Source: a virus (lineage: Duplodnaviria > Heunggongvirae > Uroviricota > Caudoviricetes). From it: 64,000 nucleotides of DNA. The stretch is taken from IMG/VR virus record IMGVR_UViG_3300008108_000037, positions 4,002 through 68,001 of that record. One strand, given 5' to 3'. Within the stretch, counting starts at the first letter, position 1. The number at the start of each line of letters is the position of its first letter. Made by a program: the position numbers and the translations under genes. A model generated the notes under the pieces. That model worked only from the letters and a program-made list of their open reading frames with translations. It was not told the origin of the DNA and made no database searches. Positions 7,508 through 60,511 of the stretch are shown here, one piece after another.

Positions 7508-7690
7508 ATGAAACACATCCGAATCTTTGAAGAGTTTGAAAATGAAGGTGAATACATTCCTCCGATACAAATAGAGTGTAATAAATGTGGATGGAATTGG
7601 AACTCCACCGAAACCAATCCCAAAGACCTGTATATCTGTCACAAGTGTGGAGCGGATAATAAGGATTTTTACAAACCGGAAGAAGAGTAG
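7508..7690 (+). CDS. Zn-ribbon protein with capsid-targeting-like N-terminus
   Basis: MKHIRIFE; CxxC...CxxC; flanked by 14-bp direct repeats. Confidence 0.75.
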   Translation: MKHIRIFEEFENEGEYIPPIQIECNKCGWNWNSTETNPKDLYICHKCGADNKDFYKPEEE

Positions 7691-7802
7691 TTGCGGCGCC
7701 CCGGCGGTTGGATACAGGACAATGCCCTATACTTTTTTTCTTGCGGCATTTTTTCTTTTCGCCTTTTTATATTACTTTTATGTCATACTAAACAACACGA
7801 CT

Positions 7803-8177
7803 ATGACAGATCAAGAACAATTCGAGCATCTCAAGAAAGAGATAAAGAACCTCAACGGAAAAATCTTTATCTCATTCGTTCATCCAGGACTTTATGGTCC
7901 ACTCAGAAATCTCAACTTCATTTTAGAAAACCCAGATCCGGTAGAACTAAACAAGTATCTTAAGGAAGGCTGGCACAGAATAGTTGAAGATATTTGGAAA
8001 GAAACCCTAATGGCAACTCAACCTATGGTCATGCCTTGGGAAATGACTTTAACTGCTGAAAAAACCCCAAAGGTTTTCAAAACAATTAAAGATGCTGAAA
8101 CCCATATTAGGCATTTACTTAAGACCGGAATTAGTATGACTCAAGATCCTTTCTATTACAGATTAGGAATTCACTAA
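7803..8177 (+). CDS. early hypothetical protein
   Basis: ACACGACTATG leader at 7803 inside the longer ORF-track call. Confidence 0.8.
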   Translation: MTDQEQFEHLKKEIKNLNGKIFISFVHPGLYGPLRNLNFILENPDPVELNKYLKEGWHRIVEDIWKETLMATQPMVMPWEMTLTAEKTPKVFKTIKDAETHIRHLLKTGISMTQDPFYYRLGIH

Positions 8178-8460
8178 CCTCAAAACTTTAAACCCTTGGA
8201 AAAACATCCAAGGGTTTTTTGTGGGGTAAGGTTTGGGAAATTCGCTAGCGGATGTGAAACGGGATGGGGCGCCTCAGCAAGTATACATCAGATCTACACA
8301 TTTTCAGGAAGGGGTATCCGGGGAGACCCCGCCCGCGTACGTGCGCTGCGAGGCGCCTCGGCAAAGTCAACCTATGGTTTACCTATGGTCTATTCCTTTT
8401 TGAGGCATTTTTTTGTTTTACCCCAATTGATTATATTTGGGATAACTAATACATCTTTAT

Positions 8461-8652
8461 ATGACACAAGAAAAAGACCCATTAATTGGAAAAAGAATTA
8501 AACTAATTAGAATGGACGATCCTTTCCCGGTTGAACCAGGTTCCGAAGGAACTATAGAATCAATTGATGGGATGGGACAGATTTGGGTACATTGGGATAA
8601 TGGAAGAGGTTTAGCCATTATACCGGGTACGGATGAGTATGAAATAGTTTAA
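8461..8652 (+). CDS. DUF4314-like protein
   Basis: RIKLIRMDDPFPVEPGSEGTIESIDGMGQIWVHWDNGRGLAIIPGTD pattern. Confidence 0.8.
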   Translation: MTQEKDPLIGKRIKLIRMDDPFPVEPGSEGTIESIDGMGQIWVHWDNGRGLAIIPGTDEYEIV

Positions 8653-8925
8653 GTGTGTTGAAGTCTTTTGTTTAAAAGTTTAAACAAAAGATTAAACGAG
8701 CCTGCAGAGGCTCGTTTTTTTTTGTGGGGTAGTATTCCAAACCTCAAAAAATAGCTACACGCTAGGTTTTGAAGCTGAGGCGCCCCGACTGGAAAAAACC
8801 AAAAAACCCACTTTATCCAGAAAAGGCGCCCCTGCGGTATAGAGGCGGACAAAAACTTTTTTCGTGGGCATTTTTTTATTTCGCCTCTTTATAGTATATT
8901 TACACCATAATCAAATATCACACAC

Positions 8926-9237
8926 ATGACAACATCAATTAAAAAAGCAAGCAACTCAGCTCTCTCAAACGGAACATCTTTTCACGGACACGTTTTCAGG
9001 GCAACACCCCAACAACTCACTGACCTTTTTGGACCAGCCCATTATTCAGCTAATGATGGCGAGGACAAAAGCAATTTTGATTGGACAATGTTATTGGGCG
9101 AGGAAGTTCCGTTTACAATTTATGATTGGAAAGAATACCGCACATTAAAAATGAATGAAAAGGTGGAATGGCATATTGGGGCTAAAGACCCTTTTTTTGC
9201 AGGTTTGGCTTTATCTGAAGTAATCAAGCTTTTATAG
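8926..9237 (+). CDS. early hypothetical protein
   Basis: FTIYDWKEY/WHIG phage-type motif; cassette context. Confidence 0.8.
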   Translation: MTTSIKKASNSALSNGTSFHGHVFRATPQQLTDLFGPAHYSANDGEDKSNFDWTMLLGEEVPFTIYDWKEYRTLKMNEKVEWHIGAKDPFFAGLALSEVIKLL

Positions 9238-9435
9238 GAACAGAGGAATTTAGAAACCCGGATCTTTTTAAGGTCCGGGTTTTTTGTGGGCTAAGGTTTG
9301 GGAATTTTCTCGGACCGTCCTAAAATCTGGCGAGGCGCCCCGGCCGGTATGCAAACTTTTTGCATACTTTCCAAATTGCATTTTTTTCTTTCGGGGAGAT
9401 TTATTAATTTAGCCTCATAATCAAACACACACACT

Positions 9436-14048: not shown

Positions 14049-14125
14049 GTGGATAAGGATGGACCTTATATCAGGTGGTAGTTTCCCTAGGGGTTTGGAA
14101 TATATAGGGTAAATAATATTCGATT

Positions 14126-14473
14126 ATGAGACACCTACGTATCTTTGAATCCCACACTGAGCAGTTGCAAGAAGCAACCCCGCCCAAAACAGAGTCCAAG
14201 GAATCCATTCAGAACAAGAGAATGGCTAATTTCTTTAACAAGCTCTACAAGATGAATCTGCCTCTAGATGGCAATGGGAAAAACCCAGAGTACATCAAAG
14301 CTTTCACTCGTTACTGTGGAGAAAAGAAGATTACCACCCATATCTGTAAAAAGGGAGATGGCTTCTGTTCTGATCTTCAAGCTGGAGAAATCACCGTCAA
14401 AGATGCCCAGATGCGAGCAAAATTTGAGAGGAGTGTGAAAAACAATGCTCTTGCCCTCCTAATGAAACCTTAA
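14126..14473 (+). CDS. putative internal head protein
   Basis: MRHLRIFE N-terminus; GAATATATAG box upstream. Confidence 0.75.
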   Translation: MRHLRIFESHTEQLQEATPPKTESKESIQNKRMANFFNKLYKMNLPLDGNGKNPEYIKAFTRYCGEKKITTHICKKGDGFCSDLQAGEITVKDAQMRAKFERSVKNNALALLMKP

Positions 14474-14527
14474 GGGTGAACTAAGATTTTCTAAGAACCA
14501 GACCTAGCGTCTGGTTTTTTGTGAGGT

Positions 14528-15079
14528 TTACTCCGTGAAGTAAGTGTTTCTGAAGTATCTGAGAGGACGGGCAATCGAAGTGTCTCTTAGATGTATAACA
14601 GTCATATCCCTTTCAAATCTACGTTGGGTGATCCAACCTTTAATTCTTTGAATGTCTTTGTTGTACCATCCTCCCACATCGGGTGGTAATTCGAGATCTC
14701 CGTTAATCCTGAGGACTTGCTCCTCCACGCTCTCCACACGGCCTAAGACCTCTTGACAGAGAGCTATGACCTCTTCAGAGGGAAAGGAGGTTAAGCTTCC
14801 TTTGTGCCACATTCTGTCTGGATCTGTGTCAAACACGATGTGCTCTCTCAGCTCTTGTAGGGGTATTTCGAACTCCACTATCCATTCCCCATAGATGACT
14901 TTGTTGGGATCTAGAAAGGCACCCATTCCAGCTCCTTCTGCACTGGCTCCCTTTCTTTGGCTCTCATCCCAGCCGGATTTGAGGATAGTCTGGGCATCTT
15001 CCTCGGATCTTGTCCCGTGGTAGATCTTTAAACCTCTCCGAGAGAGCAGGAAGGCTTCAAATAGTTGGAGATGTCTCAT
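14528..15079 (-). CDS. putative ADP-ribosyltransferase-fold internal head protein
   Basis: MRHLQLFE N-terminus then LKIYHGT...ILKSGW...GAGMG..; YHGT motif typical of H-Y-E ARTs. Confidence 0.55.
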   Translation of the reverse strand: MRHLQLFEAFLLSRRGLKIYHGTRSEEDAQTILKSGWDESQRKGASAEGAGMGAFLDPNKVIYGEWIVEFEIPLQELREHIVFDTDPDRMWHKGSLTSFPSEEVIALCQEVLGRVESVEEQVLRINGDLELPPDVGGWYNKDIQRIKGWITQRRFERDMTVIHLRDTSIARPLRYFRNTYFTE

Positions 15080-15157
15080 ATGCTTTATATATTATAGATC
15101 ATGGAGATTGTTACCTTTCCTCCTCTTTGGGCTATAAGAGGTAAATAAAAGAATCTC

Positions 15158-15697
15158 ATGAAACAACTCTTTTTCAAGCTCCGCAATTGGCTCTATAAAG
15201 ACAGCCGACTCACTATCCGTAAAAAGGCTGACAGTATGCCTGATGGAGGATTGAATAATCCTTTCACTGTGAACATGCTTACCTTCAGTCCCCCTGCCAC
15301 TCAGACCAAAGTGCTCTCTAAGGCCCATGAGGAGACTTCCCTCTCTGGCACCTATGGTCTGAATCCCTGGGACATCTTTAATCCTTTTAAGACCAACACT
15401 AACATTGTGTGGCTGATGATGTACCAACAGGGATTGATTAAAGATGTCACTGCTGAGATCGTGCATCCCAAAATGGGCAGTAGCTTTGCTGTGACAGTCA
15501 ATAATCCTCAGGTGGGCACTCCCTATGCTGTGTTCTATAACTCTCCCATGGAGCTGGCCATTCCTTCTCCTCTAGTGGGTCATCGAGTGGATCTGAATGA
15601 AAACGGTAAAGCTTTCTGGATGAGTGAGAAAGGCATTCAAGTGGAGGTGCAACGTTTACAGGACTCTGATTGCAAGGAGTTCTTAGTTATCCTTTAA
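15158..15697 (+). CDS. hypothetical protein
   Basis: ORF track. Confidence 0.75.
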   Translation: MKQLFFKLRNWLYKDSRLTIRKKADSMPDGGLNNPFTVNMLTFSPPATQTKVLSKAHEETSLSGTYGLNPWDIFNPFKTNTNIVWLMMYQQGLIKDVTAEIVHPKMGSSFAVTVNNPQVGTPYAVFYNSPMELAIPSPLVGHRVDLNENGKAFWMSEKGIQVEVQRLQDSDCKEFLVIL

Positions 15698-15708
15698 AGA
15701 TATGTTCC

Positions 15709-16368
15709 ATGCAGATTAGTTACACTAAATCCGGCATTTTAGGAGGGGATGGTGTGGTTTTTTATAATCCACTCTATGATGGGGGAGGAACCACCATCGG
15801 ATATGATATGTGCAAGCATCCATCCATCCTAAAACACCTCTCCAATATAAACAACACTTTGGAGATATGCTCCGGTCCCGGATTTATTGGCTTCTATTTG
15901 TTATTTAACGGTCTAACAAAAAAATTATGGCTATCCGATAAATTTGACGGTGTGCTGCCGGATATTCTCAAAACAAATGCATTCAATCAGGTAGATGTGA
16001 AATTTATTCATTCAGATTGTTTTCAAAATTTTGAAAAGTCCTTAAAATTTGATTTGATAATCAGTAACCCTCCCCATGTCCAACATGATATGGAATGGAT
16101 TAGAGACAGAAAGACCGAGGAGGAAAAACACGCAAGTTATAGAATTAATCTTGATGAGGATCTAAAATTCCATCGGGAATTCTTTGAAAATGTCAAGAAT
16201 CATCTCAATCCCGGAGGCAAAGTAATATTGGTCGAAAACCAAACATACATAAGCTATGCAACCATTATGGATCTAGCAGGATCTGGATTTGAGTGTGAGG
16301 TTATAAATGGGGTATATGCCGAGAAGAATTTTTATTATATCGTCCTGACTCTAGGTACCAGAGATTAA
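15709..16368 (+). CDS. class I SAM-dependent methyltransferase (PrmC/HemK-like)
   Basis: LEICSGPGFIG motif I; FDLIISNPPH motif IV; ATG 15709. Confidence 0.85.
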   Translation: MQISYTKSGILGGDGVVFYNPLYDGGGTTIGYDMCKHPSILKHLSNINNTLEICSGPGFIGFYLLFNGLTKKLWLSDKFDGVLPDILKTNAFNQVDVKFIHSDCFQNFEKSLKFDLIISNPPHVQHDMEWIRDRKTEEEKHASYRINLDEDLKFHREFFENVKNHLNPGGKVILVENQTYISYATIMDLAGSGFECEVINGVYAEKNFYYIVLTLGTRD

Positions 16369-16490
16369 TAAAGAGCTTCCTTCTCAGCCCGGGCCTAGTG
16401 TCTGGGTTTTTTTATGTGCTAGGGGGCCTTGGGGCCTTGACGGCTCGGATGTCACGGGATCAGCATAGAGGAGGGATCGATATATAAATC

Positions 16491-17228
16491 ATGAGACACA
16501 AAGAAATTTCAGAGGCCATCTTTCTCATTAAACAATCTATTCACAATAAATCCCCACTCAGCTTAGTGAGAATAGGCGATGGTGAAATAAACATTTTAAA
16601 AGAAAGAGGTGGGTCAGATGACTGGAATCAAAAGGTAATCTCCCTCAATGAAACGTCCACGATCGAGGAAGCTTTTTCCATCAACAAACCATTCATAGAG
16701 AATGCAATAGCAAAAGCTGATATCCTTGGATTATTAGACCCCAAGTCTAAATACGTCTCTTTTAACTATGACGAGAATCTTTGGTCTATCTCCGATGAAT
16801 ACATTTTAAGGTTCAGAACCTCCATGCCAATGATTGTGGATCATCAGATATCTAGATCCAGAGAACTGGGATCAGTTCAGGGAATGAGAGATTTACTTTC
16901 AGGTAAAGCAATTCATATCATATCCCCTAATGTGGACAGATTAAAAGAGAGAAAAATAAGCGAACTTTTGGGATCTAAAGTTTCCTTTACGGATAATTCG
17001 ATGTCAATTAAGCACTATAACAGGCAACCAATCATTGACTCTTTTAAAAACATACGAGAGGATATAGTTCTTTTAGGTGTAGGACCTCATAAGGATTATT
17101 GTACAATTCTAAAAGAACATGGTAAAATAGCGATAGATCTTGGGGCGACATTGGATGCCTGGGCGGGATTAAAAACCCGGGGATGGTTCGAGAAGGGCAA
17201 TCTCCAAGAATATCTATTTATAGAGTAG
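16491..17228 (+). CDS. GT-D fold glycosyltransferase-like protein
   Basis: SLVRIGDGE, ADILGL, AIDLGAxxD motifs. Confidence 0.75.
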   Translation: MRHKEISEAIFLIKQSIHNKSPLSLVRIGDGEINILKERGGSDDWNQKVISLNETSTIEEAFSINKPFIENAIAKADILGLLDPKSKYVSFNYDENLWSISDEYILRFRTSMPMIVDHQISRSRELGSVQGMRDLLSGKAIHIISPNVDRLKERKISELLGSKVSFTDNSMSIKHYNRQPIIDSFKNIREDIVLLGVGPHKDYCTILKEHGKIAIDLGATLDAWAGLKTRGWFEKGNLQEYLFIE

Positions 17229-17307
17229 GATGCACAGAAAAATCTCAGAAATCAACACCGTGATGAGATTGATATATAAAACACACGGCATCATCTAACA
17301 CTAAATT

Positions 17308-17625
17308 ATGAATCATTCCTTGACTGATGCCGAATTTTTAATCGGAATTTTATTAGCTATTGCAATTATTGGGGGATCCCTCTATGGAGTCTCTAAACTC
17401 TTTGTCTATAAAACCCAAGACATTCTGGTCAGATTTATTCTACTGATCTTCACAGCCATGGTCTCACTGTACGTTGTGGATAAAGTGGTTGCTAGAAATT
17501 ATGAATTTCTTCCAGAGGAGCAAAATGCTCAATTGTTTGATTTGATCAAAACCCTGGTTTTAATGATTTTCAGTTACTATTTTGGAACTAGAGAGAACAG
17601 TAAGAATGATGGCGAGAATAAATAA
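17308..17625 (+). CDS. membrane protein (holin-like)
   Basis: Three hydrophobic segments ending ...SYYFGT. Confidence 0.7.
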   Translation: MNHSLTDAEFLIGILLAIAIIGGSLYGVSKLFVYKTQDILVRFILLIFTAMVSLYVVDKVVARNYEFLPEEQNAQLFDLIKTLVLMIFSYYFGTRENSKNDGENK

Positions 17626-17686
17626 CTATTTAGATTGAAACGTAATTAAAACCCTGATATATAAAGAAAAATAAATCATTTGCACA

Positions 17687-18910
17687 ATGAAAAGAATTAA
17701 ACTATTTGAAGCCTGGGTACATGCACAGGCTTTGAACGAAGCAGCCCCTTTTGGAAAGTTAGATCTTTCCCTGTTTGATCAAGCGATGGCAGCTCGAGAT
17801 TTTGTAAAGGAGGAGAAACTGAACGAGGATCAAAATATGAGATATGAAGCCCTTAAAGCCATCTTGAAAAACAATGGGGTTATTTTTTCGATCCCCGTTG
17901 AAGATGCCGCACTGATCCTCGCAAATTACTGGATTTTTGGAGCGCCCCAGATTGGCTCTATGCTACCCGAAGCGAAGAGGTGGTTCGCCAAAGATGTGAA
18001 CTCACCAATTAAGCTAAATCCCTCTCCTGCGGATCCCACTAAAATTCTTACCAAAGGTGTTTTCACCGAGGATGAAATAATCGATCCGGGTGATGAATCT
18101 GCATCCTCGGATTACAATGAGATTGCTTTGTATTGTAATAATGCCTCTTTGATTCTCGTTGCACAATATCTAAAAGACAAAATGGGGGATAACACTAAAG
18201 TAGGTACTCCCACTCTCGGAAGTCTTAGACTAAGCATAGACGAGGATGCTGGTTATGTAAATTGGAAAAGAGAAGCCAATGGTCTTGATTTCATATTTTA
18301 TGGAACATCCTCAACCACGCAGGCTCAATCTAAACAGACTGTAACCACTCTCACTTGGGAGGTTCCAGATACCGGAAAAACAATTGTTAAGCAATTACCT
18401 GGTACAATGTTTGCCACAGGCCAGGTTACTCTAACTGATGCTAAAGAATTGGATGCAGCCATTGCGGAATTAAAAGCTCTATTAGCTGATAAAAGTACCG
18501 TACTTGGATCAATTGAAATTGAATCCAGTGCATCTGGTGATCGCCCAACCGGAGATAATCAAAGCGGATATCCTGCTGGCACTACACCTGGAAAGTATTC
18601 TCTTGGCACACCATATGTCGTGAAGACAGGAGAGACCTCGGGAAATGCAAAATTAGCACTTGGCAGGGGAGAAACAATTAAAGCAAAGTTAGCTGGCTTA
18701 AGCAATGACATTAAGGTTAAAGCCGTTATTCAAGACGGAGGTGATAAAGCTCAATATGCTAAACTTATCGTCACGGCTAAAAAAGCAGGAGGAGCCAGTG
18801 AAGTTTACACCAAAGACGAATTAAAAAATCTGGTATTAAAAACTAAACAAACAAAAGACTTAGCTTCATCTAACACTCTTACTGTGTGGGAGGCTAGGCT
18901 TCGTTGGTAA
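17687..18910 (+). CDS. putative virion protein with C-terminal OmpA-like domain
   Basis: MKRIKLFE...LNE N-terminus; FATG...IEIESSAS...NAKLALGRGETI resembles OmpA_C. Confidence 0.7.
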   Translation: MKRIKLFEAWVHAQALNEAAPFGKLDLSLFDQAMAARDFVKEEKLNEDQNMRYEALKAILKNNGVIFSIPVEDAALILANYWIFGAPQIGSMLPEAKRWFAKDVNSPIKLNPSPADPTKILTKGVFTEDEIIDPGDESASSDYNEIALYCNNASLILVAQYLKDKMGDNTKVGTPTLGSLRLSIDEDAGYVNWKREANGLDFIFYGTSSTTQAQSKQTVTTLTWEVPDTGKTIVKQLPGTMFATGQVTLTDAKELDAAIAELKALLADKSTVLGSIEIESSASGDRPTGDNQSGYPAGTTPGKYSLGTPYVVKTGETSGNAKLALGRGETIKAKLAGLSNDIKVKAVIQDGGDKAQYAKLIVTAKKAGGASEVYTKDELKNLVLKTKQTKDLASSNTLTVWEARLRW

Positions 18911-18964
18911 TCTACATGAGCCTACGCCGGTCAATAGACGTACCTGGTTCATGCTCAACTTAAG

Positions 18965-19528
18965 CTAGAGAGAACTACTGTTCTGATAATACCCTAACTG
19001 GAAAACGATATATGCGATTTTATAGTTAGGGTATTTTATTATGTTTACAGAGATAGCTCCATATTTACAAAGTAACACATCGGAAACCTTGGAGTCTCCA
19101 AATTGCACAGTTCCTGTGTCTCCTACTCTTTCCTGTCTCGGAGCAACAATTCCACTAACATGATATTTAGATTGTAGCCATTTTCTAAGGGCATTCTCAG
19201 CAATGTGTTGGTAATTATCCTCTGCTGCAGAAAGGATAGGAACTGCAACAATCATTTCTTGTCCTTTAAAATCCTCCCATTCCTTTCCTCGATTGTGTCC
19301 CCAAGATTCTGTGGTTGAAACCCGGTTGTTCCATTTTTTGGCAGAATTATACCAAAACTCTGTCCAGATGAAAGGCTTTTGAGGCAAGGTTGCCCGATAG
19401 CTATTAATATGATCGAACACATATTTAGATAGTTGTTTATCTTCCGTGACACTTAATGGAGTTGCAGACTGAGCATATGATCTGACTGATAATAACACAA
19501 GAAGAGAAGAAACAATCAGGAATTTCAT
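18965..19528 (-). CDS. secreted CAP/SCP-domain protein
   Basis: Signal peptide; INSYRA...WGHNRG...WLQSKYH pattern. Confidence 0.65.
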   Translation of the reverse strand: MKFLIVSSLLVLLSVRSYAQSATPLSVTEDKQLSKYVFDHINSYRATLPQKPFIWTEFWYNSAKKWNNRVSTTESWGHNRGKEWEDFKGQEMIVAVPILSAAEDNYQHIAENALRKWLQSKYHVSGIVAPRQERVGDTGTVQFGDSKVSDVLLCKYGAISVNIIKYPNYKIAYIVFQLGYYQNSSSL

Positions 19529-19659
19529 AATTCAGGGAAGTTATTGTTAATATTTGCCTCAAATATAAGGATAAAAGCGGCCACAAAAAAATGCTGAGAG
19601 CGGTGGCAGTGAATCATTCTTGAAATCTTGATATATAAATAAAGATTAACTCGAACAAT

Positions 19660-19887
19660 ATGAAACACATTAAACTTTTTGAAAACTGGCAGGATATGGA
19701 GTCGGAAGAATCCTATTCTGATGAAATGGATCAAATGCCTGCTGATGCCGGGGATCCTCCGATAGATGCTATGACCCGTCAGGAGCTGCTAGATTATCTC
19801 GAATTGGAAGAAACCCAAGGAAGTTTAGAACTCACCGACGAACAATTAAGAGACGCAGTGAGAGAAAAAGCAAGCGCAGAATCCTAA
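19660..19887 (+). CDS. acidic putative internal head protein
   Basis: MKHIKLFE; GATATATAA box upstream. Confidence 0.75.
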   Translation: MKHIKLFENWQDMESEESYSDEMDQMPADAGDPPIDAMTRQELLDYLELEETQGSLELTDEQLRDAVREKASAES

Positions 19888-19909
19888 TTAAAAATATCGA
19901 TCCCAGCAT

Positions 19910-20263
19910 CTATTTGCTGGGATTTTTGTTTGTGTCCAAAACAAAATTGTCCAAAAAATATTTTTCGGCAAATGCCAGTTTCCAATCTCCAGTATGCCCA
20001 TCCTCGTCTAGTGCATAAAGTACTGCTTTTTTGATGTTATTCTTTTCCTGATCCTTGAGGTTTTGCACTAGGATTTCAAACGATTCGTTGGTTTCGTATC
20101 TGTCTTTTACGTACTGAGCTAATCTTTCTACTGGTGTCATGTTTATTATCTTTTTTGGAGCTTCCTCAATGATGGTTTCACATCCCCAGCATCTATATAA
20201 GCCATCCCGATAATATTCTCTCAGTCTAACTTCATGTGTGCATACTGATGTTTGTTCTGCCAT
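19910..20263 (-). CDS. hypothetical protein
   Basis: ORF track. Confidence 0.7.
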   Translation of the reverse strand: MAEQTSVCTHEVRLREYYRDGLYRCWGCETIIEEAPKKIINMTPVERLAQYVKDRYETNESFEILVQNLKDQEKNNIKKAVLYALDEDGHTGDWKLAFAEKYFLDNFVLDTNKNPSK

Positions 20264-20341
20264 TTTAATTTATTTTAGATTTAGTGAGGGAATTTGCAAT
20301 TGCATTAAGTTTGGTATTGTTAAATTCTCTACTCATGGATC

Positions 20342-20593
20342 TTATTTTTTTCTTGTCGGAGGTAAATAATAAATCTTCAACCAATCAAAGTGTCCGAGAG
20401 CATCTGTGAAGGGACCTCCGAAAACTGGATATTCATCTTTTAGATATTCTTCCTCTATTTCCTCCCAGGTTTCTTTATTTAGAATCTGCATGATTTCTCT
20501 AGTAAGAGTCCCCGCAGTTTTGGTGCCGTCATTATTCCATTTAATAATAGCATTTTCGATTTCCCGATAAAGTTTGATTTGATCTTCCTGCAT
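20342..20593 (-). CDS. hypothetical protein
   Basis: ORF track, coupled to neighbour. Confidence 0.65.
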   Translation of the reverse strand: MQEDQIKLYREIENAIIKWNNDGTKTAGTLTREIMQILNKETWEEIEEEYLKDEYPVFGGPFTDALGHFDWLKIYYLPPTRKK

Positions 20594-20928: not shown

Positions 20929-20980
20929 ATTATTTAAATGATTATTTAAAAACGATGCCACGATGGGGCTCGCTTTTCGT

Positions 20981-21550: not shown

Positions 21551-21617
21551 ACTTTTTGAATTAGTAGGACAAATATAGGAAATATCCCCGATAAGATTTT
21601 GCTGTGGTGTGATCTAT

Positions 21618-21926
21618 TTAGTAATCCCAGGATGTACCCACGAGTTTTTGTGCTTCCTTCCTTCTGTTCTGTCTATACAGATCTGAGATGTTTATCCAGA
21701 ATTCTATCTCCTCCTCTCTTAATTGCAATGTGGATAAAACAGCTTCTTGTGTTTCCTCCAGCTCTTGTATTTTTTCTCTTTGAGTTTTAATTATGGAGTC
21801 TCTATATGCAATTTCCTTTTCCATCTCGTTGTATGCTGAGTTCTTATCGTCATTCAATTTATAGATCATCAGAACGATAAAAAGAACTATCAAAAATAAA
21901 ACAATCTTATGTAACGGGTATTTCAT
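21618..21926 (-). CDS. membrane-anchored coiled-coil protein
   Basis: N-terminal TM then coiled coil. Confidence 0.7.
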   Translation of the reverse strand: MKYPLHKIVLFLIVLFIVLMIYKLNDDKNSAYNEMEKEIAYRDSIIKTQREKIQELEETQEAVLSTLQLREEEIEFWINISDLYRQNRRKEAQKLVGTSWDY

Positions 21927-22657
21927 CAGAATCCAAAGGTATCATTAAATTTAATCACTGCCTTAGCAGTAGAAGGATCGTATCCTGCTGCTATCAAAAT
22001 TTCTTCTTTGTCAAATCCTTTTGGAATTCCATTTATGATCGAAACATCTTTTTTCACCATGTTTGCCAATGCCGAGAAAACATCATTTCCTTTCTCCTGT
22101 GAAATTTCTAGGAGATAGCTTTTCATCAAATCTAATCTAGCGTCATTTTTTGGATTGTGAATTGCCATTTTTTTACGATCGTCAAAGAATTTAAGTAATT
22201 TTTTAGTATCAGAAAGCATTTTATCAACCACGCTCTTTCTCACATCTAGTGATCTAGCTATTGAATAAGCTCCAATTTCTATGAAAGCTGCATTCCAGTC
22301 TTCTAGTGAATTAAAATTAAGAGGGTATCCTTTATTTACCAGTTCCTGACCATAGTAAATAATTCCCCTGCATGGGCTGATTCTAAAATGGTAATATCCA
22401 ATCGGAAAAAAAACTTCTCTGATTCCCTGTTTATAGCTTTTAGTGATCTCCCATCTGAATTCTTTTGGTGCGCCTGGATCAATTATATAACGTCTGCTGA
22501 CATCATAATATCGATCTTCTGGATATGCACGATGCAAATCCTTCACCAGGCTAACTATTCTCTGAAATTCTGGTAATTTCTCCAGTTCTTCTTTTTCTGG
22601 AGCAGTGCATCCACCCTCCTCCTCGAAAACACTATATTCAAAAAGATGTTTCATCAC
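21926..22657 (-). CDS. putative internal head protein
   Basis: MMKHLFE; GATATATAA box 2 nt upstream; ends DTFGF. Confidence 0.8.
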   Translation of the reverse strand: MMKHLFEYSVFEEEGGCTAPEKEELEKLPEFQRIVSLVKDLHRAYPEDRYYDVSRRYIIDPGAPKEFRWEITKSYKQGIREVFFPIGYYHFRISPCRGIIYYGQELVNKGYPLNFNSLEDWNAAFIEIGAYSIARSLDVRKSVVDKMLSDTKKLLKFFDDRKKMAIHNPKNDARLDLMKSYLLEISQEKGNDVFSALANMVKKDVSIINGIPKGFDKEEILIAAGYDPSTAKAVIKFNDTFGF

Positions 22658-22685
22658 TGTTATATATCACTTAAATATATACAAG

Positions 22686-23132
22686 ATGAAGCATCTCGAT
22701 ACCTTTAAAATATTTGAATCTAGACAGTCTCAAACCTTGTGGGGATTTTGGCTTCATAATTTTGAGGGAAGTTTAGTTGGACTTTTGGATAAGCCAACAG
22801 CAAAAATCATATCTAAGATTCTGGACGACCAATTAGATCCCAACGGGGATGACATGTACGGAATATCAGCCAATCCGATGGAAAGAAATGGTGGAGATAT
22901 TTGGTTTGACGAATCGGAGTTTATAATTCAACAAGGTGACAACAGCGATTTAACGGATTTTGCAACCACCCTGCATGCTAAAGATCTTTTTGACCATCCG
23001 AATCAATTCATCAGTTTAGAAGGAGATTATGAGATCAACGGACCCTGGCTAAATGCCATAGATGCTATTTTAAGGGCATATCCGGATATTAAATTTCCTT
23101 TCCCTAAATGGGAAACAGTTTATAAAAAATAA
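22686..23132 (+). CDS. putative internal head protein
   Basis: MKHLDTFKIFE start at 22686. Confidence 0.75.
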   Translation: MKHLDTFKIFESRQSQTLWGFWLHNFEGSLVGLLDKPTAKIISKILDDQLDPNGDDMYGISANPMERNGGDIWFDESEFIIQQGDNSDLTDFATTLHAKDLFDHPNQFISLEGDYEINGPWLNAIDAILRAYPDIKFPFPKWETVYKK

Positions 23133-23137
23133 TTCTT

Positions 23138-23932: not shown

Positions 23933-23946
23933 ATATATAAAAAAGC

Positions 23947-24261
23947 ATGAAGCATTTAGAAATCTACGAATCTTATTCTGACGAAAGGACTATTATTCTG
24001 ACATCCCGACAGGGAAGAGAAATAAAGTTTTCTACAAGAGGTGGAAGGATTACAGATATTCACAACGATTCTGATGTTAGATTTCCTTATTCAGTAGGTC
24101 AAACAGCAAATGCTTCTATGAAAACCTGGGCTTGTAATAATGGATTCAAATGGAACGGAGAGGATCCCTGCCCGGAGGAAAAAATATATGGCATAAGAAA
24201 AAAAGACATTCCTCAAGGACACGAACTAAGAATGTTATTCCCTCATAAATTTAGAAATTAA
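23947..24261 (+). CDS. putative internal head protein
   Basis: MKHLEIYE; GATATATAA box upstream. Confidence 0.75.
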   Translation: MKHLEIYESYSDERTIILTSRQGREIKFSTRGGRITDIHNDSDVRFPYSVGQTANASMKTWACNNGFKWNGEDPCPEEKIYGIRKKDIPQGHELRMLFPHKFRN

Positions 24262-24262: not shown

Positions 24263-25186
24263 ATGAAACACCTTAAACAGTTTACAAGATTTATTAACGA
24301 ACAGGAGGAAAAAAACCCAACACCTCCCCCACCCTCTGTTGGTTCAGGAATTGATACAACAGGACTGGGCGATATTTTTAAAGATGCTGCTAAGATTTTT
24401 AAGGATGCTGGATTTTTACCCGCTGACGCAGAAGGTGGAGGAATGACCTGGGGTGATAGACTACAAGCTACAGGGGAATACAAGGTTCCAAGTGCAGAGG
24501 AAGTGCAAAAAGGAGTTGATGCAGTTAATGCAGCTATGGATAGACATGGTATCACAGATAAAAATATGAGAGCTTCTATACAAGGAGTAATTGGTAAAGA
24601 ATCTGGTTGGGTACCTAAAAATGAGCATCCTTACACCAACACCTCCAATGATAGAATCAGAAAAATCTTTGGAAAAAGAGTTGCTTCATTAAGCGATGCT
24701 GAATTAAATATGATAAAAGCAGATCCAAATAAATTCTGGGACAGAGTTTATGGTCCAGATGACATAACAGGTGCTTCACAGAAAATGGGTAACACCAATC
24801 CTGGAGACGGAGCTAAATATTTAGGTAGAGGATTCAACGGAATCACATTTAAATCCGGATATGAGAAAATGCAAAAACTCTATAACCAGGACGGTAAACT
24901 CGGAAAATCAATTGATTTTGTGTCGAATCCTGATGCTTTAAATGATTTGGATGTTGCAGCGGAAGTTGCAGTACTTTATTTTGTTGACAATCTTAAAAAT
25001 CCAAAGGTAAAATCCATGTATGGATCAAATGATCCTAATGATTTTCCTGATAAAGACTCCGCTCTTAAAGCTGTATTTCACGTGAATGCAGGATTGGGCA
25101 ATAATTTATCCTCTCCGATTTTCCAAGAAACTTTAGCAAAGTCTGCAGATTTCAGAGACGACATGCTACAAAAAAATATGGTTTAA
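24263..25186 (+). CDS. GH19-like lysozyme/chitinase with capsid-targeting-like N-terminus
   Basis: GKESG, DGAKYLGRGFNGITFKSGY, NPDAL...AAEVAVLYF; MKHLKQFTRFINE. Confidence 0.8.
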   Translation: MKHLKQFTRFINEQEEKNPTPPPPSVGSGIDTTGLGDIFKDAAKIFKDAGFLPADAEGGGMTWGDRLQATGEYKVPSAEEVQKGVDAVNAAMDRHGITDKNMRASIQGVIGKESGWVPKNEHPYTNTSNDRIRKIFGKRVASLSDAELNMIKADPNKFWDRVYGPDDITGASQKMGNTNPGDGAKYLGRGFNGITFKSGYEKMQKLYNQDGKLGKSIDFVSNPDALNDLDVAAEVAVLYFVDNLKNPKVKSMYGSNDPNDFPDKDSALKAVFHVNAGLGNNLSSPIFQETLAKSADFRDDMLQKNMV

Positions 25187-33632: not shown

Positions 33633-34226
33633 GTGAAGCATTTAAAAAATTTCTCCATTTTTGAGGGTGATAGCTCCGGATTCTCTAGGAAGACCCGGGA
33701 CATTTTTGACATCTGGAACAATTACAGATTACAGGGTCCGCTTTTGGTAAATCTCGATAGATCTTATTTTGATACCCTTGATTGGGTGAAAGAAGATATA
33801 GTAGATAAACCCGACGATCATGTTGTAATTTGGTCCGTTACTGCAGAGGATGATGACGGATTTTTCTGGGGGTCTGATCAAGCAGTTATTGATGATCACT
33901 ACGATGAAGACGTAGATTTTTCACAGGTTGAGGTTTTTGGTGACGATTTTTTTATCAATCAAATAAAAAATGCATTCGAAGAAAAGGGATTTGTATTTGA
34001 TTTAGACAAAAGAAATATTCTTAAAACCGATGCATCAGAAGAGGAGATAGGGGAAATTTTTCCAAGAAGCTTGGAGTACCTCGGAATGGGCAAGCAAGGA
34101 CAATTCATTATGGATGGTTATATTATCAATCCCGTCTATACCATTAGATTTGACATCCAGGGAGCGGATTTCAGTTATATCTACATTAAGAATGGGGATG
34201 GCAGCAGGTTCTGGTCAGTAATTTAA
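33633..34226 (+). CDS. putative internal head protein
   Basis: GTG start, MKHLKNFSIFE; GATATATAA box 3 nt upstream. Confidence 0.75.
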   Translation: MKHLKNFSIFEGDSSGFSRKTRDIFDIWNNYRLQGPLLVNLDRSYFDTLDWVKEDIVDKPDDHVVIWSVTAEDDDGFFWGSDQAVIDDHYDEDVDFSQVEVFGDDFFINQIKNAFEEKGFVFDLDKRNILKTDASEEEIGEIFPRSLEYLGMGKQGQFIMDGYIINPVYTIRFDIQGADFSYIYIKNGDGSRFWSVI

Positions 34227-44559: not shown

Positions 44560-44595
44560 ATCTCAATCCTTTTGCAGAATATAAAAACACACGAC

Positions 44596-44853: not shown

Positions 44854-44910
44854 GAGTCAAAAAAAAGAGTGTAGGTAAATCCTACACTCTTTAAAATATT
44901 ATAAAATAAA

Positions 44911-45129: not shown

Positions 45130-45139
45130 TCTCATATAC

Positions 45140-53436: not shown

Positions 53437-53691
53437 ATGAGACATCTAAAGATATACGAAAGCTTCGAACCCACATATGATACAAATTATAATCCAAAAG
53501 ATTATAAAATTTTAAATCCTGGGCAAATTGCACATTATCGTCAGGTTTTTAGATTAAGACCCGCTAGGGAGGTCGACTATGTCTGGAAAGTTCTAGATAC
53601 GATAGAAAAAAATAATGGTAGAGCATCTCTTAAACAATGGAACGTCATTCAAAGAACTTACAGTGGAGGAAATTATCCAGTTAATTACTAA
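53437..53691 (+). CDS. putative internal head protein
   Basis: MRHLKIYE; GAATATATAA box 3 nt upstream. Confidence 0.75.
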   Translation: MRHLKIYESFEPTYDTNYNPKDYKILNPGQIAHYRQVFRLRPAREVDYVWKVLDTIEKNNGRASLKQWNVIQRTYSGGNYPVNY

Positions 53692-54332
53692 TGAGACACC
53701 TTTTTGAATATATGGAATTTGATGAACTTAGTTCTAAAGCTAAAACATCAGCTCTGGATAACGTAAGGAATGAAAAGTACTCTGGTAGATATGGGGGTGA
53801 CGATGTTGCTTCTTGGGTAATCGATGATGATTCACTTTTTGAGCCACCTCATGAAGAAATGGAAAAACTTTTCGGAGATGATTATTACGAGGATAATGGG
53901 AATAGGTTCATGATCCAAAATCTAAGAAAGGACATCTATTTTATAGGGAAGCAAGATCCTAATTACTATTTACACTGTGAAAACGCAATTGACATCAGTA
54001 ATGATAATCTTTTTCTTAGATGGTTAGAAATACCTGCAGCATTCCGTCCTCATATTTACTATATGTTCAAAAGTTCCGGTAAAAGTAATACCACTATAGT
54101 ATTTGAAATAGAGGATTTAGACTCTATGATTGCTGAATACGGAGAAGAATCCGAGGATCTTCTAACCAATTACTGCAATAGAGCCGAAAGAAAGTTTAGT
54201 GACCACATGGATCGGGTTTTAACCCGTATTTCTAATGATATAGATGCTCAGTTCGAGGATGGTGGCATCATCGACACTATAGAAATCAACGATATTAAAT
54301 TCGAAGAAGACGGGTCAATAGCGGAGGATTAA
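53691..54332 (+). CDS. putative internal head protein
   Basis: MRHLFE; acidic. Confidence 0.75.
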   Translation: MRHLFEYMEFDELSSKAKTSALDNVRNEKYSGRYGGDDVASWVIDDDSLFEPPHEEMEKLFGDDYYEDNGNRFMIQNLRKDIYFIGKQDPNYYLHCENAIDISNDNLFLRWLEIPAAFRPHIYYMFKSSGKSNTTIVFEIEDLDSMIAEYGEESEDLLTNYCNRAERKFSDHMDRVLTRISNDIDAQFEDGGIIDTIEINDIKFEEDGSIAED

Positions 54333-55882: not shown

Positions 55883-56551
55883 ATGAAAAAAATGAAGAGA
55901 TATAAGAATTTCTTAAATGAAGGAAATTTTATAGAAGACTTTGTAAAAAGTGTAATTGGCGGAGATGAACAAAAAGAAAAAGTATTGAGGCCGGAAATAT
56001 TGAATTTTAATACCCAATCTTTTTTTAATTGGATGTCCGAAAAAATAAAAAGAGGCGACGATCAACCTCTGTATATTTTTAATTCTGTAAATTCATCAAA
56101 TCCTTTTTATGTGATGTCTGAGTTTCATGAAGAATCGAAAGCCTATGGATTCGAGGAAGACGAAAGCGGAAACATAATTGCGGGGGGTAAGAAATATTCC
56201 TACTGTATATTTAATTGCTCAAAGATTGATTCATTTTCTGCGGATTTTTTGATTTCTGACCTAAATAAAATACTTTCTAAAAATTCAGAGGAATTCAGGA
56301 ATACAATAATAGAGGTTACTAATTTCTCTTCACTTGACGACACGGAGAAAAAGCTTTTTAACACTTTTGTAGAATCTAGAAAAGTTGGGGATTATGAATT
56401 AAAACCGGGGGAATTTTTTATATTTTCCGACAACACCAATTCTAAAAAGGGAGGGAAGGACGAATCCTCTCATCTGGGATCTATATTCCCAAATACTAAA
56501 TTTTATATTATAGGTCATAAATTTTCCAGAACAGAAGAAAACTTGGATTGA
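55883..56551 (+). CDS. putative internal head protein
   Basis: MKKMKRYKNFLNE; GAATATATAA box upstream. Confidence 0.7.
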   Translation: MKKMKRYKNFLNEGNFIEDFVKSVIGGDEQKEKVLRPEILNFNTQSFFNWMSEKIKRGDDQPLYIFNSVNSSNPFYVMSEFHEESKAYGFEEDESGNIIAGGKKYSYCIFNCSKIDSFSADFLISDLNKILSKNSEEFRNTIIEVTNFSSLDDTEKKLFNTFVESRKVGDYELKPGEFFIFSDNTNSKKGGKDESSHLGSIFPNTKFYIIGHKFSRTEENLD

Positions 56552-57368: not shown

Positions 57369-57677
57369 ATGTCGATTAAAAAATACAGAGAATTTATTAA
57401 TGAAAGTGCATCAGAGGAAATAGCTGGGGGAAAATCTTCAGGAATGAGCCTAATTGATATAGCTAAAAAACATTCTTATGATGATTCCAGTGATTCAACT
57501 TCACAAGAAAAGATAGATGACATGTATACCATACTCACTAAACAATTAGAGATAGGAATTTCTGTCGAGCTTGAGCATACAGGTAATGAAGATGTTGCGA
57601 TGGAAATCGCTATGGACCATCTAGAGGAAGATCCACGTTATTATGAAAAGCTTGGAAAAGCAGGTCTAATAGATTAG
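57369..57677 (+). CDS. DUF5661-like putative internal head protein
   Basis: MSIKKYREFINE; GISVELEHT...IAMDHL.EDP.YY.KL. Confidence 0.8.
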   Translation: MSIKKYREFINESASEEIAGGKSSGMSLIDIAKKHSYDDSSDSTSQEKIDDMYTILTKQLEIGISVELEHTGNEDVAMEIAMDHLEEDPRYYEKLGKAGLID

Positions 57678-57773
57678 AAATTCGAGGAAATTCTTCTAAA
57701 CATGCGAAATTTTATTACATTTGCGATATATAACAATCAAAGTTCTTTAAAATATTGGTAATTTGATTTCGAA

Positions 57774-57840
57774 GCGGCAGATTTGGATACTTCAAACTAT
57801 ACAAATAAGCAACGGATTAATTAGGCTTCATGCCCAATCT
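57774..57840 (+). ncRNA. Y-RNA-like hairpin 1 upstream of TROVE
   Basis: GCGGCAGATTTGG-ATACTTCAAACTA...CCAATCT; shares TACTTCAA(A)CTA with hairpin 2. Confidence 0.5.
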
Positions 57841-58034
57841 AAAACGAGCAAATCCCCTCTCGGCTGGGTAATGCTCCTCTGGACGTTAAACGACTGGAGT
57901 AACTAACCGGGTATTTCCTGTAGAAACGGGGGTGTCAGAGACCATAAGGCTGAAGATTCGCTTCCTTAAGGAGCAACCCCAAACTGGGAATTCTCGAAAC
58001 AAAAAACCAAATTTATTTAAGATTATAAACTATC

Positions 58035-58084
58035 CGACGCGGGACAGGGAGTTACTTCAACTACAAACCGAAACAACACTCCCT
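58035..58084 (+). ncRNA. Y-RNA-like hairpin 2 upstream of TROVE
   Basis: GCGGGAC-AGGGAGT-TACTTCAACTA...ACTCCCT; 7-bp perfect stem. Confidence 0.55.
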
Positions 58085-58133
58085 TTCAATATTCTCGGTA
58101 AGTTTCTAAAAGTCTTTATTATTAGACATGTGG

Positions 58134-58163
58134 AAGCTTATCGGAACCCGATAGGCTTTTTTT
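58134..58163 (+). terminator. intrinsic terminator 24 nt upstream of the TROVE start
   Basis: AAGCTTATCGG-AAC-CCGATAGGCTT-TTTTT. Confidence 0.85.
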
Positions 58164-58187
58164 ATTGGGAAAATTAAAAACAAACAT

Positions 58188-59828
58188 ATGTCTAAATTAA
58201 CAGAATACGCAGTAAAGTCAAGATCAGAAGTTAGAAAGCACGAGGAAAAAGTTGTCGAAAATTTCATGGGTGGAAATTCTTACACAATTTCTCCGCTCCA
58301 AACCCTTAAAATAGTGGCAGCAAGTTCTATCTTTGGAGAGCCCCAATATTACAGAGACGGAATTAAGGAGGAGAAGAAAATTAAGAATCATGACTCTCTT
58401 TTGGAATACTCCATATTTTCTGAATTAATCAAAGATAAAAGGACCGCTGCGGACGTTTTTACAGACGCTATTGATAAGGCCTTAGATTATGACTTCAAAG
58501 GAACTTTGGACTTAGCTACGGAGCTAAGAACCACCTTTTACATGAGGTTAAATCCCGCTGTTATTTTTGTAAGAGCATCTATGCATCCAAATAGGATTGA
58601 ATTCAATGAGAATAATCCAGGATACATGAAAAAGGTGGGTAAAGCCATTGCATTAAGACCTGACGATCTAACAAATCAATTTGAATATTTCATGTTCTTA
58701 AATAAGTCCAAGAATAAGCTTAGCTCCCTGGTTAAAAGAACATGGGCAGAAAAACTTGCTGAATATTCAAGATATCAGCTCAACAAATACAAGGGGAAAA
58801 TGCTGATCGACCTGGTAAGGATTTCCCATGCGTGGAGCAACGATATTGACGAGTTAATGAAGACTGGTTCTCTGAAGATCGAAGAGAACGAGAGAACCTG
58901 GGAGAATTTAAAATCCGAGGGTAAATCCTGGAAAGAGATTTTAGAAACTATTGAAATTCCGCACATGGCTCTTTTAAGAAATTTAAGAGGAATTTTCATA
59001 GAGATCGAGGATATCGAGGTGGCTAAGAAAGTGACAGAGAAACTTAAGTCTGGGGTTTTAAATGGGAAACAATTTCCATTCAGGTATTGGTCTGCGTATC
59101 AGGCGATAAAAGATACCGAGACAATAAATCATTCGGGAATTTTGACTGATGCTTTAGAAGAGTGTATGGACATAGCAGTTGATAATATGCCAAAACTAAA
59201 AGGGAAAACCATTTCTCTTTCGGATAACTCCGGATCATCCTGGGGAACCTGCAATTCAGAATATGGAAAAGTGCATGTTGCTGAGATAGCAAATCTTTCA
59301 TCCCTGATCACAGGAAAGAATTCAGACGAGGGTGAAATTGGATTATTCGGTGACGGTCTTTTAGTTGAACCTGTTTCAAAAAGGGACGGTCTTCTTTCTC
59401 AACTTAAAAAAATGAATGCTGTTGAAAAGGAGCACGGAAAACTGGGTGGTGGGACCGAAAATGGTATTTGGCTATTTTTTGATAGAGCTATCAAAAACAA
59501 AATCCACTATGATAATATTTTCATCTATTCAGACATGCAAGCAGGTCATGGTGGTTTATATGGGGTAAATCCTGATGACTATAAGGATTTTATTCATGGG
59601 AAGGGCGGATATGGAAGATATATCGACGTTCTAGCTCTAGCTCAGAAGTACCGAAAGGAAGTTAATCCGAAAGTAAATCTTTTCTCAGTCCAAGTGGCTG
59701 GATATGATAACTCAGTTCTACCTGAAAATCTTTATAGAGGAGCAATCTTAGCTGGATGGACAGGTAAAGAACCGATCTTTGCTAAGGCTTTAATTGACAC
59801 GTGGGATTCGATAGAAAACAATCAATAA
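58188..59828 (+). CDS. Ro60/TROVE-domain RNA-binding protein with vWA domain
   Basis: NFMGG.SY; LR....MRLNP; RPDD; LIDLVRISH; MALLRNLRG; QFPFRY; MIDAS-like DNSGS; SDMQ. Confidence 0.92.
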   Translation: MSKLTEYAVKSRSEVRKHEEKVVENFMGGNSYTISPLQTLKIVAASSIFGEPQYYRDGIKEEKKIKNHDSLLEYSIFSELIKDKRTAADVFTDAIDKALDYDFKGTLDLATELRTTFYMRLNPAVIFVRASMHPNRIEFNENNPGYMKKVGKAIALRPDDLTNQFEYFMFLNKSKNKLSSLVKRTWAEKLAEYSRYQLNKYKGKMLIDLVRISHAWSNDIDELMKTGSLKIEENERTWENLKSEGKSWKEILETIEIPHMALLRNLRGIFIEIEDIEVAKKVTEKLKSGVLNGKQFPFRYWSAYQAIKDTETINHSGILTDALEECMDIAVDNMPKLKGKTISLSDNSGSSWGTCNSEYGKVHVAEIANLSSLITGKNSDEGEIGLFGDGLLVEPVSKRDGLLSQLKKMNAVEKEHGKLGGGTENGIWLFFDRAIKNKIHYDNIFIYSDMQAGHGGLYGVNPDDYKDFIHGKGGYGRYIDVLALAQKYRKEVNPKVNLFSVQVAGYDNSVLPENLYRGAILAGWTGKEPIFAKALIDTWDSIENNQ

Positions 59829-59831
59829 TTT

Positions 59832-59858
59832 AAAGGGATCTTCTGATCCCTTTTCTTT
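59832..59858 (+). terminator. terminator after TROVE
   Basis: AAAGGGATC-TTCT-GATCCCTTT-TCTTT. Confidence 0.75.
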
Positions 59859-59911
59859 GATATATAATAAAACTCCTGAATATCCTTCAGGTAAGAAAAA
59901 TATATACCAAT

Positions 59912-60160
59912 ATGGAAATTAAAAGGTTCAAAGCATTTTTGAATGAAATGAAAAAGGGTTACGGTCAAGATTATTCCCTGGAAGATGTTACAAAGGGAGA
60001 AATCGTTGCTTACAGAGGCACAAGATATTTTGTGATAGATTCTAACGAATACATGCTAGAACTTTCCAAAGATAAAGATGCCGTTCCTGGAGACAGAAAA
60101 AACATGCTCGCAAACAAAAGTATGTTTAGAGAATATGGAGCCATTCCAGATCAAAATTGA
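59912..60160 (+). CDS. putative internal head protein
   Basis: MEIKRFKAFLNE. Confidence 0.75.
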   Translation: MEIKRFKAFLNEMKKGYGQDYSLEDVTKGEIVAYRGTRYFVIDSNEYMLELSKDKDAVPGDRKNMLANKSMFREYGAIPDQN

Positions 60161-60181
60161 TATATAAATAAAAATAAGACG

Positions 60182-60511
60182 ATGAGACATTTAAAATATT
60201 TTAGACCCCTAAACGAAGAAATGGGCCAAGACGAAGTCATTTATGCAGATTCTTGGACCCCAACCCAACATCCAGAAGGTGATTATGATGTTAAGTGGAC
60301 ATCAGAGGTAGGGGAAGAAAAACAAGCGGTATTTTCCGACGTTGGGGGTCCAATTATGGACGACGGGGAATCCGGATATTCAGTTTTTGAAACAATTCCG
60401 GGAACATCCTCAGATGGAAACGAATATTTAGGTGAGGTGGTTTATAAAGAACTTGGCGGAGATGGATCACATGAATTCCAGATAGTTTCTATCATGATCA
60501 AAAACAAGTAA
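60182..60511 (+). CDS. putative internal head protein
   Basis: MRHLKYFRPLNE; GATATATAA box upstream. Confidence 0.75.
   Translation: MRHLKYFRPLNEEMGQDEVIYADSWTPTQHPEGDYDVKWTSEVGEEKQAVFSDVGGPIMDDGESGYSVFETIPGTSSDGNEYLGEVVYKELGGDGSHEFQIVSIMIKNK

Follow-up and report, generated by a model that had tools for sequence, protein, structure and literature searches.

Why do so many otherwise unrelated proteins of an uncultured giant phage begin with the same few residues? The question is raised by a 64,000-nucleotide (nt) stretch of viral DNA, bases 4002-68001 of the linear 132,001-bp IMG/VR viral contig IMGVR_UViG_3300008108_000037 (this whole stretch is called the window below), in which sixteen genes encode an N-terminal peptide resembling MKH(I/L)K(L/I)FE, here called the tag. 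The first-pass annotation of the window had likened these N-termini to the capsid-targeting sequence (CTS) of phage T4. From the analyses below we consider that the shared N-terminus is probably a capsid-loading propeptide of the T4 type, which would be clipped off by a head protease.

The sixteen N-termini that the first-pass annotation listed are all encoded where it placed them, with two small start corrections, and every tag begins at the start codon (Table 1). For the minus-strand gene listed as 22657, that position is the start of a GTG codon, and the ATG that gives the tag lies at 22654; the 33633 gene begins with a GTG codon. Five extra tagged genes lie outside the window on the same contig (window-relative positions 117186+, 121539-, 121571+, 122401+ and 124196-). 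A strict M-[KR]-H-[LI] start was found in 14 real open reading frames (ORFs) of the 132-kb contig against ~0.1 roughly expected from residue frequencies, and a looser tag motif heads 21 of the 217 proteins, compared with a rate of 3.4% in internal 18-residue windows (p 2e-5, binomial test); about one-tenth of the contig's proteins bear the tag. The proteins had also been called unrelated, and this holds, as no pair among the 21 tagged proteins aligns past residue 16 (BLASTP, best E 0.35).

The tag occurs in a short form, M-(K/R)-H-(L/I)-x-(L/I)-(F/Y)-E, and in a long form ending (F/Y)-x-x-F-(I/L/V)-x-E, the latter in the genes at 24263, 55883, 57369 and 59912 and in two outside the window. Its architecture is two-part, with an MKH(I/L)K(L/I)FE head that often provides one (L/I)-(F/Y)-E site and, behind it, a further site, F-(I/L/V)-N-E. 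All tags in the window end in I/L/F-x-E (for example IFE, LFE, IYE, INE or LNE), a short motif that is weak evidence alone. The T4 CTS is MKTYQEFIAE; amber-suppression work showed that its residues 4 and 7 (Tyr4, Phe7) direct targeting and residues 8 and 10 (Ile8, Glu10) processing, and in T4 any CTS-fused protein is packaged and the protease gp21 removes the tag (PMC9026906). The long tags have the same spacing as the CTS, aromatic-x-x-Phe-Ile/Leu-x-Glu, and that of the 57369 gene is identical to it at 6 of 8 residues (KYREFINE versus TYQEFIAE). The short tags have only the part that fits the (L/I)-x-E rule of gp21, through their (L/I)-(F/Y)-E.

By comparing the tags at the nucleotide level, we found that their codons vary synonymously (AAA/AAG/AGA, CAC/CAT, six Leu/Ile codons, TTT/TTC and GAA/GAG), with mean pairwise identities of 0.69, 0.72 and 0.48 at codon positions 1, 2 and 3 and of 0.31 in the 24 nt upstream, and that the same peptide is kept across contigs of 22-43% guanine plus cytosine (GC). 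Synonymous variation around a kept peptide points to selection on the peptide, and is not what a DNA repeat, a recombination cassette or an mRNA element would look like. A degenerate DNA pattern for MKH(L/I)K(L/I)FE matched at least 119 loci in IMG/VR, with at least 149 matches; among the matches listed, nearly all lie at ORF starts, on contigs of up to 640 kb, and the consensus over viral contigs is MKHIKLFE-x-F-(I/V/L)-N-E. In the 128 distinct tagged proteins among these listed matches, conservation extends through positions 9-13, although these lay outside the search pattern: an aromatic residue occupies position 10 in 91%, I, V or L occupies position 11 in 55%, and Glu occupies position 13 in 58%. 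Past position 13 nothing is conserved. Over residues 14-32, 107 of 126 proteins among the listed matches are less than 40% identical to each other. A profile search of the peptide, as the first-pass annotation had proposed, was run position-blind with the first 32 residues as profile (E <= 0.001) against 1.84 billion proteins and gave 102 hits, 97 of them from residue 1; with so short a profile, 102 is a lower bound. A tblastn search of GenBank phages with the 20-residue consensus tag gave no match, the query being too short.

Acquisition of cargo by the addition of a short tag, another proposal of the first pass, agrees with orthologues that differ in whether they have the tag and in which form, as seen in a complete 290-kb relative (G005) that shares 27 ORFs with the contig and bears tags on ~50 of its 401 ORFs. 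The DUF5661 protein has a long tag here and a short MKHVKIFE on the same domain in G005, the gene at 25188 is untagged here and has a tagged G005 orthologue, and the lysozyme gene is tagged here while the closest match to it in G005 (30% identity, E 8e-6) lacks a tag. Orthologues generally retain the tag while the following linker diverges: this applies to orthologues of the 24263 protein at 75% identity, and orthologues of the 23947 protein keep the tag with conservative changes. The L133 orthologue of the 33633 gene has the N-terminus MKYLKNFKSLFE, and the G005 orthologue of the 53691 gene starts MKTICIYE. An untagged, internally repetitive 398-amino-acid (aa) protein (32433-33629, plus strand) was rejected as a case of clean tag loss, its N-terminus being longer and degenerate-tag-like and its start uncertain. 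This protein matches 13 places in G005, where its paralogues stand in tandem arrays and start MKNLKTY-x-x-FE.

Head genes of the T4 type were found alongside the tag in relatives. Among 30 large tag-bearing records, Peptidase_S77 was detected in 17, and 18 have a protein homologous to the G005 capsid protein; all five complete records have both (>=90% complete for the Peptidase_S77 count). Four larger close relatives, reached via the orthologue of the 23947 protein (61-76% identity), all have S77 in an ORF of 655-695 residues and carry 3-11 strict tags each, with 0 in reversed-pattern controls. In G005 the capsid protein matches Pfam Gp23 at 2e-41, and the protease scores above the curated cut-off for S77 and matches phrog_207 at 1e-38. 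The G005 protease-scaffold ORF (43277-45307; L136:3277-5307) contains ~14 tandem 14-residue repeats, each with (L/I)-A-E, and many x-L-N-E-(S/A/G) sites besides; such repeated cleavage-type sites in a putative scaffold tail are as expected if the scaffold is cut up into short fragments. Throughout the clade, protease ORFs typically span 600-800 residues. We suggest that these phages most likely build their heads with a gp23-type capsid protein and with a prohead protease of the gp21 type (Peptidase S77) to which a repetitive scaffold is fused. Sites of the same type stand near the N-termini of capsid proteins, with LINE at residues 3-6 and SLNE at 40-43, then SAGA, in G005 and two INE in phage PTm1. 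Searches with the G005 capsid protein (tblastn) found matches in Lak megaphages, the 630-735-kb phages of Al-Shayeb et al., Flavobacterium phage MaF61 and Sphingomonas phage PAU, and further ones in Tenacibaculum and Chryseobacterium phages. A crude long-form pattern (noisy, with no frame control) was clearly enriched only in the 735-kb phage LR756501, where the long form is abundant (for example MLKYQEFINE), and in phage MA9V-1, which has one long-form tag between its capsid-assembly and protease genes.

Among cultured phages, PAU, whose host is really a Sphingobacterium (PMC3738902), shows a similar tag in a head-gene setting. The pattern MK(T/S)(L/I)-x-x-(L/I/M)-(F/Y)-E has 19 coding-strand hits in PAU versus 0 in controls, and 14 of the 19 tags fall in the head block (100-121 kb; L150), close to the genes for portal, protease, scaffold and capsid proteins. 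The tagged set includes the annotated scaffold protein and two proteins with the GenBank note 'internal capsid protein'. The PAU capsid protein has AKLNE-23, identical to the end of PAU's own tags, and the PAU protease has LFE-18 and LYE-237. The head-block proteins gp142-146, 149, 150, 152-154, 164 and 166 share a tag start, as the tagged proteins of the contig do; the PAU tags are often followed by AKLNE, and the PAU capsid protein is homologous to that of G005. PAU differs in that the tag head is MKT rather than MKH and in that most of its tagged genes are inside the head block rather than dispersed. String and term searches of the literature consulted found no description of the tag, PAU's included, and the huge-phage papers searched never use 'capsid targeting'.

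The tagged genes also share an upstream signal. The first-pass annotation had stated that most follow a GATATATAA-type box, and indeed an ATATATA box lies at most 45 nt upstream of 12 of the 16 (the 22686 gene counted), ending 3-23 nt before the start codon; three of the four boxless tagged genes directly follow another gene, which suggests operons. Box and tag are associated (odds ratio 27, Fisher p 1e-9). Of the ORFs in the window, 0 of 40 in the first 13.5 kb and 20 of 86 after it are preceded by a box, a distribution that fits a switch of gene class near 13.5-14.1 kb; a crude count showed no enrichment of TAnnTTTG, a host-type promoter motif, ahead of the genes at 1-13.5 kb. In G005, 59 of 69 ATATATA occurrences lie at most 45 nt upstream of an ORF start, and the ORFs so preceded include the head protease, a gene of the head block and many large ORFs that may be structural. 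The sequence context of the box thus suggests that it is probably a late promoter. In the divergent tagged pair at 22654/22686 the starts are 32 nt apart, and the spacer contains two overlapping near-palindromic TATATAT boxes, one per strand.

The labels that the first-pass annotation gave to individual cargo proteins fared unevenly. The lysozyme stands: the protein encoded at 24263-25186 matches the lysozyme/endolysin family phrog_181 (1.1e-22, residues 77-242) and, more weakly, four further lysin/chitinase PHROGs. The ADP-ribosyltransferase (ART)-like label of the 14528-15079 protein is moderately supported by fold matches. The protein has no Pfam match, and in its AlphaFold2 (AF2) model (predicted local distance difference test, pLDDT, 78) the tag is a low-confidence helix at residues 3-12 ahead of the domain. 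All top matches in the fold search are ARTs of the diphtheria-toxin/ExoA/ParT type, at middling scores (Foldseek E 1.8e-3), and comparison with VIA gave a Z of 8.0 and a root-mean-square deviation (rmsd) of 4-5.6 A over 120-146 aligned residues. Across 14 homologues there is no variation at His21, Tyr63 and Glu69, which are candidates for the catalytic His, Tyr and Glu of an ART; the tag is kept in 13 homologues, with M1, L6 and E8 invariant. The zinc ribbon of the 7508 protein is weak, as its Pfam hits all fall below the curated cut-offs, and the OmpA-like label of the 17687-18910 protein found no support: this protein has no Pfam hit and only template-modelling (TM) scores of 0.29-0.43 on a model of pLDDT 0.49. 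A search of IMG/VR found no relative of it. In Vibrio phage VPs20 (L158:2347-3615), DUF5661 is the second domain of a DUF2213 protein whose gene lies between the terminase and capsid (DUF2184) genes, and this fusion to a head protein hints that DUF5661 may be a head-interior module. The other tagged proteins match no Pfam or PHROG family, apart from the 53691 protein with its PHROG. The predicted mature proteins have isoelectric points (pI) of 4 to 9.5.

The main live alternative to capsid loading retains a propeptide that the protease removes and dispenses with delivery: the tag would mark core or scaffold-accessory proteins that are degraded or expelled at maturation, or keep enzymes inactive or unstable until the late protease acts, and none would be injected. 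It draws on the fit of the motif to the protease rule, on the tags that head the PAU scaffold protein and small head-block proteins, on the small size and acidity of many tagged proteins, and on the precedent of T4 gp67 and gp68, core proteins that are cut into fragments (PMC9026906). We consider it unlikely given the folded enzyme domains behind the tag (the lysozyme and the ART-like fold) and given that the majority of tagged genes occupy variable regions remote from the head block, like the internal-protein genes of T4. Other explanations dispense with the propeptide altogether. The first codons could form an mRNA translation-initiation element for late, near-leaderless transcripts in a host without Shine-Dalgarno pairing, perhaps aided by the ribosomal protein bS21 that the phage encodes; a preference of phage bS21 for late phage mRNAs was proposed by Chen et al. 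2022 (PMC9723584). In favour of this, the box ends only 3-23 nt before the start codon and the first codons are A-rich; yet third codon positions vary freely while residues are kept and the peptide stays constant at 22-43% GC, conservation reaches the Glu at residue 13 and then ends, tags are also present on boxless genes internal to operons (24263, 53691 and 57369), and the box-driven bS21 and G005 protease genes have no tag. An mRNA element is thus improbable.

Marginally less probable again is that the peptide is functionless, a relic of cassette shuffling in which promoter-plus-start modules recombine, as PeSL cassettes do in T4-like phages. Tag and box do travel together, tagged genes cluster in variable regions, with tandem paralogue arrays in some contigs (for example L003), and modular shuffling of promoter cassettes is described for T4-like phages (PMC4122927). 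However, recent recombination would not leave an upstream 24 nt that is only 31% identical pairwise or synonymous differences among tag codons; the distance from box to ATG ranges over 3-23 nt, and the tag is kept in orthologues at 45-57% identity. That the tag is a leader recognised by a modifying enzyme, such as a radical-SAM/SPASM maturase, could be envisaged from six radical-SAM matches on the contig, and we consider it very improbable: at E <= 0.001 no radical-SAM gene was found in PAU or in four of the five complete genomes with tags, whereas the S77 protease and the gp23-type capsid protein are present in five of five.

For capsid loading itself, the comparison with T4 made in the first pass is supported by the spacing of the long tags, the co-occurrence of protease and capsid genes, the substrate motif, the clustering in the PAU head block and a box common to head genes. 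Several points weigh against this reading. Neither the protease nor the capsid gene was found on the 132-kb contig (~40% of the genome), nor on its closest relatives G022 and G031, which are fragments too, so that the link between tag and head machinery rests on more distant relatives. The short-form pattern does not exceed its control level in MaF61, pT24, MA9V-1, Lak-B5 and LR756501, all of them phages whose capsid protein is related. The (I/L)-x-E motif carries little information, the 'internal capsid protein' labels in PAU are the depositors' own notes, and the literature searched contained no virion mass spectrometry for PAU, PTm1 or MA9V-1. The mature tagged proteins are of mixed charge, many of them acidic, unlike the basic internal proteins of T4. 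To our knowledge, a cargo of ~10% of the proteome would also be far more protein types than any studied phage packages.

If the tag is a capsid-loading propeptide, as we favour, the tagged proteins would be made late, from ATATATA-box promoters common to head genes. The tag, in its short or long form, would bind the scaffold core and thereby have the protein enclosed in the prohead, where the protease would cut after the Glu of (I/L/F)-x-E and free the mature protein inside the head. At least part of the cargo may subsequently be injected into the host along with the DNA, like Alt and the internal proteins of T4; this injection is less certain than loading, and we propose it only tentatively. 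Equally tentative is the broader possibility that one portable tag of 8-13 residues loads dozens of unrelated proteins, ~1/10 of the coding capacity, that the virion so delivers a starter proteome and that new cargo is recruited by gaining the tag. Should the tag act like that of T4, capsid cargo could reach tens of protein species, and the tag would be an address label for loading foreign proteins into Bacteroidota phages. Sequence alone would then suffice to list which proteins an uncultured giant phage packages and possibly injects; those listed here are nearly all of unknown function and would be prime candidates for host take-over and anti-defence roles. PAU, cultured and with 19 tags, is a ready experimental system for the question.

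Table 1. Tagged genes in the window (window positions; the box column gives the distance from the end of the ATATATA box to the start codon).
Position	Strand	Length (aa)	N-terminal tag	Upstream box	Features
7508..7690	+	60	MKHIRIFE, short form	no ATATATA box	possible zinc ribbon; in the 1-13.5 kb cassette region
14126..14473	+	115	MRHLRIFE	19 nt	ORFan; no Pfam or PHROG match
14528..15079	-	183	MRHLQLFE	6 nt	putative ADP-ribosyltransferase-like fold
17687..18910	+	407	MKRIKLFE, second site ALNE at residues 15-18	23 nt	ORFan
19660..19887	+	75	MKHIKLFE, exact clade consensus	22 nt	acidic ORFan
21926..22654	-	242	MKHLFE		ORFan; diverges from the 22686 gene
22686..23132	+	148	MKHLDTFKIFE	ATATATAC box upstream	ORFan
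23947..24261	+	104	MKHLEIYE	7 nt	orthologues in 18 viral contigs
24263..25186	+	307	MKHLKQFTRFINE, long T4-like form		Pro-rich linker, then lysozyme/endolysin-like domain
33633..34226	+	197	GTG start codon, then KHLKNFSIFE	4 nt	ORFan
53437..53691	+	84	MRHLKIYE	4 nt	ORFan
53691..54332	+	213	MRHLFE		start overlaps stop of tagged gene 53437; phrog_5162, function unknown
55883..56551	+	222	MKKMKRYKNFLNE, long form Y-x-x-F-L-x-E	7 nt	ORFan
57369..57677	+	102	MSIKKYREFINE		DUF5661 protein (Pfam DUF5661 1.1e-11)
59912..60160	+	82	MEIKRFKAFLNE, long form	5 nt	ORFan
60182..60511	+	109	MRHLKYFRPLNE	15 nt	ORFan

The contig is ~40% complete by CheckV, which makes the full genome probably ~300 kb. The GC content of the window is 34-44%; ARAGORN found no tRNAs in it, no Rfam family reached its gathering threshold in it, and 5.8 kb of it had no megablast match among GenBank phages. 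Near-identical DNA was found in 20 public DNA runs from at least 14 studies (2017-2021), mostly of lakes or other freshwater and some labelled 'fungus metagenome', and in no RNA run among the public runs found. Over window positions 14101-34100, contigs from four such runs are nearly identical to the window, with very few differences. Many ORFs have Bacteroidota-type signal peptides, and the contig has a gene for ribosomal protein bS21 (window 31949-32143, plus strand; Pfam Ribosomal_S21 4.3e-13), a protein described in freshwater Bacteroidetes phages by Chen et al. 2022 (PMC9723584). These two features indicate that the host of this giant phage probably belongs to the Bacteroidota. The bS21 gene has an ATATATA box upstream and a carbamoyltransferase gene (30225-31907) adjacent, unlike the published bS21 phage clades, in which bS21 stands beside the terminase and capsid genes. 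At 58188-59828 (plus strand) the window encodes a 546-aa protein with a TROVE (Ro60-like) domain (Pfam 1.2e-9). The ~500 nt upstream of it (57678-58187) are mostly non-coding and contain an ATATATA box, and no Y-RNA or other Rfam family was found there at gathering score.

Compared with known systems, the clade resembles T4 in several respects. Both have a gp21-type protease and a gp23-type capsid protein, both place a peptide at the extreme N-terminus of otherwise unrelated proteins (8-13 residues here), and both keep tagged genes in variable regions; the ART-like cargo is paralleled by T4 Alt, an ART. The differences lie in scale, with a handful of tagged proteins in T4 and 21 of 217 ORFs here, in the tag, which is longer here and two-part, in the cargo, which consists mostly of acidic or neutral ORFans here rather than basic DNA-binding proteins, and in the host, which is probably a member of the Bacteroidota. 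In the phiKZ-type giant phages phiKZ, 201phi2-1 and SPN3US, gp175/gp245 cut head and ejection proteins at (S/A/G)-x-E; there, likewise, a T4-related protease trims many internal head proteins after Glu, and the head holds and ejects a large mass of protein (PMC5694885). For phiKZ-type phages no short tag common to these proteins is described, and they differ in having propeptides that are mostly longer than 100 residues and vary between proteins, a small residue at P3, and 8-19 processed proteins. The underlying idea extends well-known T4 biology, and what would be new here is a T4-type tag extended to 13 residues and placed on ~1/10 of the proteome in giant phages of probable Bacteroidota hosts.

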